The notes: generated by a model from the letters alone, not told the origin. DNA of 64,000 nt from Dictyostelium discoideum (GCA_000004695.1 CM000155.2:512001-576000); one strand, 5' to 3'; positions 24,394 through 41,580 are shown, numbered from the stretch's first letter. Numbers and translations: made by a program.

Positions 24394-27300
24394 TTATTTT
24401 TTATTTTTTTTATCAATAGAATTTTTAACAAGTTGAATAAATGAATTGATTGTACTATTTTGGACTTGTTGAATTGTTAATGCATTTGGAATTGAAAATT
24501 CTTTATCTACCCAATTCTTTAATTGAATGATAACTAAAGAATCTACACCATAATCAACTAAAATGATATCTTTATTAAGTTTTAAAATATCAGTTGATAA
24601 TAACTCTGAAATTTTAAATGTTATTAATTGGTCAACAGTTAATTCAACATTGTCATCTTTTAATAATGATTTTGATTTTTCATTTTCTTCATTTATATTA
24701 ATTTGGTAATCAAATTTAGATATTAATGATTTTTGAGGTAATCCATTCAACGAGGTGAAATTGAAATTTGATAAAATTAAATTTGATGATTGTGCTTGAT
24801 TTTGTAATTGTAAATCCAATGTACCTAAAATTAAATTGGTTGATATTGGTAAAAGACCTTCACCACTTAATAATGCTGCAACACTTTCATTTCTTGAAAC
24901 GAAACCTGTTGATTGAATTAAACCATAATTTGTACAAATTGTTGGTAAACCAATTGAAATTCTATATTTTGATAAAGCATCTAAAACATTATTAGATGAG
25001 ATGTAACCACATTGATTTGCAGAACTTGTTTTACTTGTTATACTTGATGACATTATAAAATTGATTATTTTCCAATTTCTTTTAATTGATTGATTATGTA
25101 AATTAATTGCACCCATTGATTTTGCACTATGAGATTGTGTTAAATGATGTAAATCAACTTCATCAGAATTACAAGTGGCTTGAGTGTATGCGAAATGGAA
25201 TATTGAATCGATATTATTAATATCTGGATTTTCAATTAATAATTCATGAATTCCCTTATCTGTTAATCCAGAATCACTAATATCAACACTCTTGAAATGG
25301 AATTTAATTTTATTTAAATAATTACCCATACTATTAATTGAATTTGAATTTAGTAACTTTGTCTTGTTAATTAATAATTCCATTTCCCATTTAATTGATG
25401 ATTTTGATAAAATGATTATATTGTCAATTGAATTATTTTCAGAATTTCTTAATATCCATTTTAAAATTTCTAAAACTATACCTGATTGACCTGTTATTAA
25501 TATGTTTTTACCTAATAATGATGGTTCAAGTTTATAATTTTGTTTAAAAATTGATTGATCAAATTTATCAATTGATTTTTGTTTTTCAATTAATTCATTA
25601 ATTATTGAATCTTGATTTTCATGATCGACAACAATTTTACCCATATGAACTCTTTCATTTATAAATTCAATTGAGTCTTTAACATTTTCAATTGAATACT
25701 CAGTAATTGGGATTAATTGTAAATCATTTGATGAAACTGCATTTGAAATTATTGATAATGTTGATTTTATAATTTTCTTATCAACATATTGTAATTCAAT
25801 ATTATGATAACCATAATTATATTTAAATTTCTTATTATCAGTAAATTCATTTGAATTTAAATGAGTAATTGATAAATCAACAATTCTACCACTCATATTT
25901 AAACATTTGAAATTTGAATCCATATAATCACTTGATGATAATGTATTCAATATAAAGTCAACACCACTTTTACCAAATGGATTTAATTTACTAATTTTTG
26001 ATTTAATTTGTTTAACGAAATTTTTATTTCTTGTTGAATATATACCTGAAATCATATCACCATAATTTTCTCTTAAATACTCTTCTTTTTCATTTGAACC
26101 AACAGTTACAAAAATTAAACCAGAATGGCCTTTCCATTTTAATATTTCTAAAGTTGATAAACCAACACCACCAGTTGCAGAATGAATTAATATTGTTTCA
26201 TTATTTTTTAATGCACCAATATTATAAAGTGAATGATATGAAGTTAAATAAACAACTGGAATTGATGATGCTTCTGAATGAGATATGTTTGATGGTTTAT
26301 GACTTATTACATCAATATCTGTAATAATATGAGATGATGTTGTACTTTTTCCAGTACCATAAACACTATCACCAACTTTAAATTCTTTATTTCCACTTCC
26401 GATATTAGTAATTATTCCAGAAAACTCTATACCGAAAATTGGTTCAACACTCTCTACTAAACCTGCATATATTAAATAATCTTTATAATTTAAACCTGTT
26501 GACATTACTTTAATTTCAACTTCATTTTCTTTTAATATTGATGTTGGTTTTACTTTTACTTTATATTCTAAATTTGGTGTTAATGATATCATAAAGTTAT
26601 CAACTTGTTCTAATGATTCAAATGAACTTGAGTTCTTGAAAATTGATTTTAATTTTGTTTCATTTTTAATTCTTTCATAATAAACCTTATGATTATTAAT
26701 TATAAACTCTCTTTGTATATTAATTGATGAATTAATTAATGGTTCAATTGTTTTAAATAAATTTTGATTTTCAATAATTGATGGGGTATCGAAATTTAAT
26801 ATAAACAACTCTAAAGGACATTCATGATAATATCTTGCAGCACCAATTAATGATGAACTTAAATAATTGGTTGTTGTCGAATCATTTGTAATTAAAACAT
26901 GCTTACATTTACTATTCAATTCCATTAATTTTTGATTGATTTGAGTATATTCATGTGTAATGTTTACGAAATTATCAACAGATAATTCATCAATTGATTT
27001 AATGAAGTAAATAATTGATTCATTTGAAATATATTTTGTCATTTTATTAAACTCTTCAATTGTTGATATAAATTGTAAATTTCCATTATCAATTGATTTT
27101 ATAAAATTATTTGATAAGTTTGAATCATCTTTATTGCCAAAAACAATAATATTATTATAATTTGTGGTTTCAGATTTTGAAAATGAAAGATTTGAAATTG
27201 ATGGTTTTTGTGCTTGAATTACAAAACATGTTAATTCTGGTGTCATTTTAATATCATCATTAAAATTTACTGATTTTAATAACTTATACCAAGTTTGTTG

Positions 27301-39800: not shown

Positions 39801-41580
39801 TTGGTTCATTATCATATAAATTCTTTGCCATTGTTGAATATTGAGCTCCTTGACCACAGAATACAAATACCATTGTTACATTCTTTTTATTTGATGATAC
39901 TAACATATTTGATGTTAATTTATCATTTGATGTATTGATAGTATTTGATTTTAAATTAAACTCATCCCAATTACTTGCAATTACAACTGAACGTTGAATT
40001 AATTTTTTAGATTTTGATTTTATTTGATTTTCTGCAAATTCTTTAAATTCAACATTATTATCAATTCTTGATTTATATAAATCTAATGATTTAATTGAAT
40101 TTGTTGAAAATGGGATTAAATATTGTTTTGGTGATTTTGATTTATTATTAATATTATTTCTAATTTGATTTCCTTTGAAACTTGATACAATTAAACAACA
40201 ATTTGAACCAGTGACACCGAAATTATTAATTGCAATTGAAACTCGTTTATTTATATAATTTAAAGTTGAAAAATCAATTGGGTCTGTTACAACCTTTAAA
40301 TTCCATTGATCAAATTTAATAAGTGGATTTGGTTTATTAAAATTTAAATTTGGAACAAAACATTGATTTTTTAAAATTAAACAACATTTAATTAATGATG
40401 ATATACCGGATGCAGATTCAGTGTGACCGATATTTGGTTTAAATGAACCAATTAATAATGGATTATCAGATGACCGATTTTCACTGGTTTTCAAAGCTAT
40501 TGAAACACTTTCCAATTCAATTGGATCACCAGTTGGTGTACCAGTGCCATGAGCTTCAAAATAAACGATATCATTTTCATTGACCTGTCCATTTGTTGAC
40601 TCCAGTGCCAAACGAATACATTCAACTTGTGATGATTTTGAAGGTGAATAAAAATTTGATTTATCTGAAAATCCATTACCATCGACATTTGATGCTGAAC
40701 CATCAATTACACAATAAATATTGTTATCATCTTTGATTGCATCATTTAAATTCTTCAAAATTGCAATACCTGCTGCATCAGATCTAACATAACCATCTGC
40801 ACCAGCATCAAACGATTTACACTTCCCATCTTTACTTAAAATATTTAAACGTGAATATGATTTTGATATATTTGGATCTATTAAAAAAAAAAAAAAAATA
40901 TTAATATTTTTAACTAATTTTTAATATTAAAATTATATATTATATATTTATATACCTAATAAAATATTAATACCACCAACAACAGAAATATTACTTGAAC
41001 CATCAATAATTGATTTATAACCTCTTCTGATTGCATTTGATGATGATGAGCATGCAGTATCAATTGTCATTGACTCACCATGTAAATCAAAACAATAAGA
41101 TACACGATTTGATATTGAATGTGTTGATGAAGAGAATATTTCTTGTTGAACTTTATTATCGTTTTTATTTAAATTTTGATAATCAGCACCACTACAACCA
41201 ATGAAAACTGAAGTATTGGAACCACGAATTTCAATTGGATCAATTCCAGAATCTTCCAATGCTTCCCAAGTACACTTTAATAATAATCTTTGTTGTGGGC
41301 ACATGTGAATACCTTCAGATGGATTAATTCCAAAAAATAATGGATCAAATGATTTCAATTCTTCAAATGGTATAAATCCAGCATAATTTGTTGAAATATC
41401 ACCTGATTTAAAAAAACTTTCATTCCATCTATCATTTTTAACAATTCCATCATACCTATTCAATAATTTACTCCATAGTTCATTTGGTGTTATATCACCT
41501 TTTAAATTTGGAAATCTAAAACCTATTCCGATAATTGCAACTTTATTACAATTTTCATCCACTAGATTTTTAGAATCCAT
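33874..41580 (-). CDS. Type I highly reducing polyketide synthase, copy 2, about 2542 aa. Exon 1 is 40956..41580, the intron is 40878..40955, and exon 2 is 33874..40877. The domain order is the same, KS-AT-DH-cMT-ER-KR-ACP.
   Basis: Near-identical to copy 1 (the embedded antisense ORFs 26031..26324 and 35493..35786 differ at one residue). The same motifs are present. The first ~30 codons diverge (MDSKNLVDENCNK versus MDYKNKYQSNENCNK). Confidence 0.9.

Follow-up and report, generated by a model that had tools for sequence, protein, structure and literature searches.

Mosaic similarity and probable gene conversion between pks40 and pks41, two tandem polyketide synthase genes of Dictyostelium discoideum

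The window analyzed here, 64,000 nucleotides of Dictyostelium discoideum AX4 DNA, probably of chromosome 6 (GCA_000004695.1 CM000155.2:512001-576000; A+T content about 78%), contains two tandem polyketide synthase (PKS) genes, pks40 and pks41, whose similarity stops close to the edges of the coding sequence (CDS). We consider it very probable, at roughly 0.88, that the pair descends from an old tandem duplication, that its coding similarity has been kept by purifying selection together with interlocus gene conversion, and that the non-coding DNA around it has decayed. The genes form a mosaic of nearly identical tracts and copy-specific islands, trees of the different segments are incongruent, synonymous sites are homogenized within the tracts, and the flanks of each copy are orthologous across strains. 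That conversion is still going on is something we infer.

Mosaic identity of the two genes

The gene models, with coordinates counted from the first nucleotide of the window, are as follows.

24394-32131, minus strand: pks40 (DDB_G0291614, Q54ED7, XP_635303), 2552 amino acids; exon 1 31501-32131, intron 31422-31500, exon 2 24394-31421
33874-41580, minus strand: pks41 (DDB_G0291684, Q54ED6, XP_635304), 2542 amino acids; exon 1 40956-41580, intron 40878-40955, exon 2 33874-40877

Translations of the spliced models match the deposited AX4 proteins, which the databases name "Probable polyketide synthase 40" and "Probable polyketide synthase 41", letter for letter. The domain order is the same in both (KS-AT-DH-cMT-ER-KR-ACP, by Pfam search and a check of motifs).

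The two genes align by blastn in one collinear high-scoring segment pair, 24386-32103 against 33865-41558, with 95.5% identity, 300 mismatches and 34 gap openings. The offset along it is 9449-9479 bp, in agreement with the tandem copies about 9.45-9.46 kb apart that had been described from the sequence alone (hereafter the sequence-only reading). When the genes were aligned globally together with about 1 kb of sequence to either side, blocks of 100 columns were 74-100% identical within the genes, and identity dropped abruptly to 37-53% beyond them, the latter being the background level of unrelated DNA of about 80% A+T. Homology reaches 8-9 bp beyond the stop codons and, at the other end, stops 22-28 nt downstream of the ATG; the ATGGAT at the start is common to both genes. 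This mapping of the boundaries confirms the proposal that the 5' flanks, the 3' flanks and the spacer are unrelated, a result with which the lack of any blastn or nhmmer signal agrees, and identity does not extend evenly into the flanks as it would after a simple recent duplication. The claim that the first 30 or so codons are unrelated was too broad, since only about 8-10 N-terminal codons have diverged. The intron has the same position in both genes and nearly the same length (79 and 78 nt), and its sequence has diverged as much as the flanks.

Inside the genes, the differences are clustered far beyond chance. The longest perfect run is 554 bp, compared with 326 bp as the most that 5000 random placements of the differences produced, and perfect runs of at least 150 bp total 2602 bp, compared with a random mean of 23 bp. 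Measured per 100 codons along the gene, the synonymous divergence (dS) lies between 0 and 0.25, and one 100-codon stretch has no differences at all. Omega between pks40 and pks41 is about 0.34 overall and below 1 nearly everywhere, and sliding omega along the pair gave no convincing stretch above 1. The individual similarities and differences listed in the sequence-only reading could be reproduced: the antisense open reading frames (ORFs) at 29928-30152 and 39381-39605 are identical at 75 of 75 positions, counting the stop codon, those at 26031-26324 and 35493-35786 match at 97 of 98, and the peptide differences TNGGVNEND/TNGQVNEND and KLLNSNSINSMGNYLNKIKF/KLINKLGNFFNNIKF are present. Its description of the copies as near-identical holds for the tracts and fails elsewhere, as other segments have diverged by 10-20%.

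Comparison across strains

The 90% protein cluster of pks40 and pks41 includes proteins from five recent Dictyostelium assemblies, probably those of a long-read survey (PMC12745789), and we compared the corresponding loci. In ACTFIT, both genes are 100% identical to those of AX4 and are offset by 9449 bp. ACTFIW (D. discoideum) and ACTFIY ("cf. discoideum") have the tandem pair as in AX4, each copy with its own flanks. Over the whole gene, paralogs within a strain are 94.8-96.1% identical and orthologs between strains are 94.4-96.4% identical.

In four-sequence comparisons of two strains, we counted the sites supporting orthology (O sites) and the sites at which the two paralogs of one strain agree in a base found in neither paralog of the other (P sites). 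There were 140 O and 95 P sites between AX4 and ACTFIW, 76 O and 190 P sites between AX4 and ACTFIY, and 85 O and 172 P sites between ACTFIW and ACTFIY. Both kinds of site occur in long blocks, with up to 61 consecutive P sites in tract T1 (AX4 versus ACTFIY) and 79 consecutive in tract T2, and runs tests on the O and P sites gave 34-53 runs where about 110-115 were expected (p<=2e-4).

Sixty-one sites are fixed and different between all of the upstream and all of the downstream copies. Three islands (alignment columns 1-850, 2777-2874 and 6486-7335) hold 54 of them, the DH segment (columns 2885-3960) holds six, and the ACP tail holds one; none is found in columns 866-2756 (T1) or 4054-6450 (T2). 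The segments are given below in the direction of transcription, all on the minus strand, with boundaries drawn from the same alignment that was later bootstrapped.

pks40 31314-32131, pks41 40770-41580: island I1, KS N-terminal domain and intron, copy-specific; divergence of 10-12% between paralogs and of 2-9% (mostly 4-8%) between orthologs; contains 27 of the 61 fixed diagnostic sites
pks40 29411-31298, pks41 38864-40754: converted tract T1, KS C-terminal domain, linker and AT; divergence of 2.9% (AX4) and 1.9% (ACTFIY) between paralogs and of 4-7% between orthologs; no fixed diagnostic site
pks40 29296-29390, pks41 38752-38843: island I2, AT-DH linker with small indels; the most diverged segment, 12-21% between copy types
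pks40 28222-29285, pks41 37684-38741: mixed segment M, DH domain; converted patches alternate with short copy-specific patches
pks40 25738-28128, pks41 35200-37590: converted tract T2, cMT and ER; paralogs differ by 1.9% (AX4) and 1.4% (ACTFIY), orthologs by 4-5%; perfect runs of 437 and 554 bp
pks40 24853-25702, pks41 34330-35164: island I3, KR domain, copy-specific; a 15-nt indel (KLLNSNSINSMGNYLNKIKF versus KLINKLGNFFNNIKF); copy types differ by 6.3-9%; 21 fixed diagnostic sites
pks40 24394-24852, pks41 33874-34329: tail, ACP, converted; paralogs differ by 2.6% (AX4) and 3.5% (ACTFIY); homology ends 8-9 bp past the stop codon

Within the three islands, orthologs are closer to each other than paralogs are, and in T1 and T2 the order is reversed for the AX4 and ACTFIY paralogs. 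Synonymous sites behave in the same way. In T1 and T2 together, dS is 0.036-0.062 between paralogs and 0.12-0.20 between orthologs (0.036-0.049 versus 0.13-0.15 for T2 alone), while in I1 it is 0.18-0.29 between paralogs and 0.10-0.18 between orthologs. Neighbor-joining bootstraps gave the split by copy type 100% support in I1 and I3 and 0% in T1 and T2; the AX4 paralogs paired in 82% (T1) and 100% (T2) of the replicates, and the ACTFIY paralogs paired in 100% for both tracts.

Taken together, the runs of P sites, the distances, the dS values and the incongruent trees support interlocus gene conversion, of which they are the standard signature, and suggest that it took place independently in separate lineages once these had split. 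The donor direction is mixed across the converted patches, which points to many independent conversion events; a single consistent direction was considered and rejected. A third paralog as the donor of the patches was also rejected: outside the pks40/41 cluster itself, a database of 5.8 billion proteins offers no PKS closer than 53% identity at the protein level. The sequence-only reading had proposed ongoing gene conversion. Conversion is supported by the cross-strain P sites, the dS values and the bootstraps, but its being ongoing is not borne out by the identity of AX4 and ACTFIT.

The history that best accommodates these results would begin with the duplication, in tandem and head to tail, of a single gene for a highly reducing iterative type I PKS. 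This duplication would be older than the split of the D. discoideum-group strains compared, because the two-copy arrangement is common to strains and I1-I3 are divided by copy type. The flanks, spacer and intron, which are A+T-rich, indel-prone and fast-evolving, would then have lost all detectable paralogous similarity. Purifying selection (omega about 0.34) would have held the coding sequence similar in part, and repeated interlocus conversion would have copied tracts of short to kilobase length either way between the two copies, which lie 9.45 kb apart, presumably through non-crossover repair with the paralog as template. The KS-C/AT, cMT/ER and ACP regions would thus have been homogenized independently in separate strains, and the KS N-terminal domain with the intron, the AT-DH linker (with patches in DH) and the KR would have escaped conversion and stayed copy-specific. 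The islands hold the indels and most of the fixed amino acid differences; their resistance to conversion may be due to heterology, to selection, or to both.

The remaining two strains differ in copy number. ACTFIR has one gene only (10001-17719 of the locus compared). This gene is of the pks41 type at 61 of 61 diagnostic sites, and the first 200 bp or so of its 3' flank match the pks41-type flank of ACTFIW. We rejected the idea that it is the product of an unequal crossover, since it is pks41-type throughout, the 3' flank included. ACTFIZ has a full pks40-type gene with a few pks41-type patches (10001-17735 of its locus) and a pks41 remnant (6994-7694), in which the first 270 bp or so are joined to a KR segment of about 300 bp, corresponding to an internal deletion of about 6.5 kb.

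The homogenization could instead have been effected by cycles of unequal crossing-over, with gain and loss of copies, and the polymorphic copy number in ACTFIR and ACTFIZ speaks for such cycles. However, the homogenized tracts are internal and bracketed by islands (I1-T1-I2...T2-I3), whereas a single crossover homogenizes one whole side. In addition, the single gene of ACTFIR is not a pks41/pks40 chimera, and the ACTFIZ remnant reflects a deletion within one gene. We therefore regard unequal crossing-over as a very unlikely source of the pattern.

The strains are rather distant from one another. ACTFIW and ACTFIR, both labeled D. discoideum, differ from AX4 by 1.6-3.6% in the flanking single-copy genes (44339-48367, where an RBBP4-like WD40 gene occupies 44339-45876) and by 4-5% in the PKS genes (dS about 0.10-0.13), which is a deep divergence for one species. 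The greater divergence in the PKS genes than in their neighbors fits the reported elevated diversity of PKS genes. An attempt to date the duplication with an ortholog from D. citrinum was abandoned, as the closest D. citrinum PKS, which is also the nearest outside the discoideum group, is 53% identical and not syntenic, its neighborhood containing genes for ribosomal protein S4e and an FNIP-repeat protein.

Non-coding DNA and the weighing of explanations

The DNA between the two genes is the following.

32132-33873: spacer, comprising the 3' flank of pks41 and the 5' flank and promoter region of pks40; A+T-rich

The spacer has no ORF of at least 50 amino acids and no tRNA genes of note, and blastn, alignment and profiles detected no homology between it and the 5' flank of pks41 or the 3' flank of pks40. 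It includes a T/A-rich tandem array at 32804-32929, with consensus units of 5-35 bp and a total length of about 125 bp, adjoined at 32634-32803 by an inverted-repeat-like stretch of about 135 bp. Both are probably ordinary low-complexity intergenic DNA.

Orthologous intergenic DNA at this locus is 78-86% identical between strains, with many gaps, or cannot be aligned. The AX4 spacer is 78% identical to that of ACTFIW, with 177 gap positions, and unalignable with that of ACTFIY; the 5' flank of pks41 is 84-86% identical between strains, and the intron differs by 13% plus indels between the AX4 and ACTFIW orthologs. About 400 bp directly past the pks41 stop codon in AX4 (33462-33873) have no counterpart in ACTFIW, in which the corresponding interval is 8664-8688 of the locus compared. 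Non-coding DNA at this locus turns over fast, and large indels remodel the flanks between strains. In nhmmer searches, orthologous flanks scored 596-643 bits, these being among the flanks from which the profile was built, and profile hidden Markov models made from four orthologous flanks each gave paralogous flanks at most 9.5 bits on either strand. A similarity between the 3' flanks reported by nhmmer was discarded because it is merely a hexapeptide-transferase gene or fragment. In AX4, the hexapeptide-repeat acetyltransferase gene (21329-21874) has a degenerate partial copy of 85-90% identity at 23740-24149, about 245 bp past the pks40 stop codon; in ACTFIR, the PKS gene is followed after 461 bp by the intact transferase gene.

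A second tandem family, without Pfam matches, is located downstream of pks40 (region 12418-23547) and has the following ORFs.

14360-15919: one copy
18842-20518: one copy
22255-22989 and 23035-23430: one copy split into two ORFs

Its members are about 520-560 amino acids long and 78-92% identical at the nucleotide level, related pieces are found at 13314-13793, and copy number and order vary among strains. Homology within this family ends 9 to about 120 bp from the start codons and is thus roughly bounded by the CDS. As this family and the divergence of intergenic DNA between strains show, CDS-bounded homology is normal for older duplicates in this genome. The argument of the sequence-only reading that homology stopping at the CDS edges indicates conversion is therefore insufficient by itself, as ordinary decay gives the same pattern. 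The divergence of I2 (12-21%) is about four times the AX4-ACTFIW ortholog distance in I2, and orthologous flanks differ by about 14%, gaps included; scaling the latter by that factor would bring paralogous flanks to background.

The other explanation offered in the sequence-only reading, a recent segmental duplication after which the spacer and both flanks were replaced, would account for paralogous flanks that lack homology even in profile searches, and the block past the pks41 stop codon that is present in AX4 and absent from ACTFIW illustrates how large indels remodel flanks. We consider it highly unlikely. The two-copy arrangement, each copy with its own flanks, is common to AX4, ACTFIW and ACTFIY, and ACTFIZ keeps a remnant of pks41. 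In I1-I3 the copies have diverged from each other further than the strains have, so the duplication is not recent, and replacement ending within 30 bp of the CDS edges at both ends would be a double coincidence. With each copy's flank orthologous across strains and no paralogous flank signal detectable, replacement is also unneeded.

An old duplication with similarity maintained by purifying selection on the protein only, in the absence of conversion, is consistent with an omega of about 0.34 that stays below 1 nearly everywhere and with an intron and other non-coding DNA that have diverged while the exons have not. It is nevertheless less probable still, as the paralogs have in T1 and T2 about a third of the synonymous divergence seen between orthologs, dS varies from 0 to 0.25 along the gene, 95-190 clustered strain-specific sites are common to both paralogs, and the incongruence has 100% bootstrap support. 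Least credible of all is an artefact of assembly, through the collapse or expansion of a repeat or through polishing across paralogs: 95%-identical paralogs 9.5 kb apart are a classic source of error and each non-AX4 strain is represented by one assembly, but both genes and their spacing agree 100% between the Sanger-era AX4 reference and ACTFIT, an independent assembly, which rules out such an artefact in the reference, two further assemblies have the tandem pair with distinct flanks, and both ORFs are intact.

Several observations weigh against old duplication with conversion as we have described it. The bootstraps are partly circular, since the partitions were drawn from the same data; the long uninterrupted runs of P sites are not. 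With single assemblies for the non-AX4 strains, cross-paralog polishing could have exaggerated the homogenization in ACTFIY or ACTFIW, while the AX4 pattern is backed by two assemblies (the AX4 reference and ACTFIT). A GC bias of the converted tracts was not seen, with no GC difference between tracts and islands, and the identity of AX4 and the AX4-like ACTFIT at the locus means that no recent conversion event is resolved. The 5' flank of pks41 is well conserved between strains (84-86%), yet the paralog dS in I1 is only 1.5-2 times the ortholog dS. Taken alone, I1 would put the duplication at only 1.5-2 times the age of the strain split, when the 5' flanks might still be expected to share some similarity; for the flanks simply to have decayed, the duplication must be older. 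Such a greater age is suggested by the 12-21% divergence of I2, and I1 was likely itself converted in the past. It is also possible that the original duplication unit ended near the CDS edges.

Divergence of the copies and relation to known systems

The KS domains of both proteins match PF00109 (E 1e-65) and PF02801 (E 6-7e-29) and carry the Cys-His-His triad motifs DTACSS, HGTGT and NIGH. The AT domains match PF00698 (E 1e-44 and 9e-46), with the GHSxG motif present as GHSLG at residues 637 and 636. PS-DH scores 30.2 and 25.0 bits (cut-off 23.7), and the HxxxGxxxxP motif occurs in both DH domains as HQIKGKYYFP. The cMT has a Methyltransf_12 match and the motif LEFGGGVG. ADH_N, ADH_zinc_N_2 and KR are above their cut-offs, ADH_zinc_N is slightly under its cut-off of 31.8 bits (29.3 and 29.5), and the ER/KR motifs GGVG and TGQSG are present. 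The ACP is matched by ACP_SdgA_C/PP-binding and has a C-terminal DSL containing the phosphopantetheine-attachment serine. The full reducing loop of DH, ER (with its NADPH-binding site) and KR, all with intact motifs, justifies the label "highly reducing PKS" used in the sequence-only reading. With intact ORFs and catalytic motifs, pks40 and pks41 look like functional highly reducing iterative type I PKS genes. Our literature search found no paper on pks40 or pks41 in Dictyostelium, their expression and function included.

Thirty amino acid positions are fixed between the copy types. Twelve are in the KS N-terminal domain (residues 30-243, pks41 numbering), four in the DH, 13 in the ER/KR junction and KR (residues 2114-2392, pks41 numbering) and one in the ACP. 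A test of the McDonald-Kreitman kind, which is non-standard for converting paralogs and here takes its "polymorphism" from deeply diverged isolates, gave 29 nonsynonymous and 14 synonymous fixed changes versus 463 and 590 variable ones (Fisher p=0.003), or 28/14 versus 140/172 within the islands (p=0.009). In I1, omega is 0.38 between paralogs and 0.12-0.19 between orthologs. This excess of replacements hints that selection may help to keep the islands apart, and indel heterology alone could block the extension of heteroduplex and so account for their escape from conversion. For the proposal in the sequence-only reading that the two enzymes may be diverging in product, the excess is the one hint, set against catalytic motifs intact in both copies and an omega under 1 in nearly every stretch.

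A tentative suggestion, which we hold to be rather doubtful, is that selection preserves the differences in the islands because the polyketides made by pks40 and pks41 are not the same, differing for example in chain length or reduction pattern. If so, the rest of the megasynthase would be a shared and freely exchanged chassis, the loss of pks40 in ACTFIR and the pseudogenization of pks41 in ACTFIZ would amount to a natural chemotype polymorphism, and the locus would be a natural domain-swap experiment on what sets the identity of a highly reducing PKS product. Selection on the islands would then point to KS-N and KR as regions that determine product identity in these orphan synthases.

The two genes belong to the iterative type I PKS family of D. 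discoideum (pks1-pks45). Zucko et al. in 2007 reportedly described clusters of two to five very similar PKS genes in D. discoideum, with promoters far more divergent than the structural genes. The coding regions of pks genes have been called "extremely similar", pks5 and pks7 being about 88% identical (PMC9618038), lineage-specific expansions of PKS genes were described by Sucgang et al. 2011 (PMC3188802), and elevated nucleotide diversity has been reported for the Dictyostelium PKS family in a 2025 preprint, which also describes interlocus conversion in tgr genes. We found no paper in our literature search demonstrating gene conversion between Dictyostelium PKS genes. Relative to what is known of this family, the map of tracts and islands and the comparison of strains add detail and not a new kind of phenomenon. 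For one pair, they explain how PKS coding regions can be alike while the promoters differ, and conversion that moves paralogous variants between loci would help to explain the elevated apparent nucleotide diversity of the family.

There is also a practical consequence. Short-read mapping, calling of single-nucleotide polymorphisms, CRISPR guide design and quantification of expression are reliable for pks40 and pks41 only in the islands, that is, in pks40 at about 31314-32131, 29296-29390 and 24853-25702 and in the matching parts of pks41.

The textbook cases of concerted evolution are the human gamma-globin genes, RHD/RHCE and the red and green opsins. As in those cases, the paralogs studied here are closer within a genome, form a mosaic with sharp edges and have homogenized synonymous sites, and their flanks and unconverted parts are orthologous. 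Unlike those cases, the target is a 7.7-kb multidomain megasynthase whose islands coincide with KS-N, the AT-DH linker and KR, and conversion is known here from sequence comparison and not from direct observation.

Recombination and gene conversion among the modular PKSs of bacteria (Streptomyces) were described by Jenke-Kodama et al. 2006 (PMC1592344), who also asked about the Dictyostelium PKS genes. In both systems, homologous exchange between PKS sequences shapes their evolution. In the bacterial case, however, the exchange is between assembly-line modules within or between clusters, whereas with pks40 and pks41 it is whole eukaryotic iterative PKS genes that exchange tracts. The case leaves the general understanding of gene evolution unchanged: the pair is an ordinary, well-resolved instance of concerted evolution in annotated genes.

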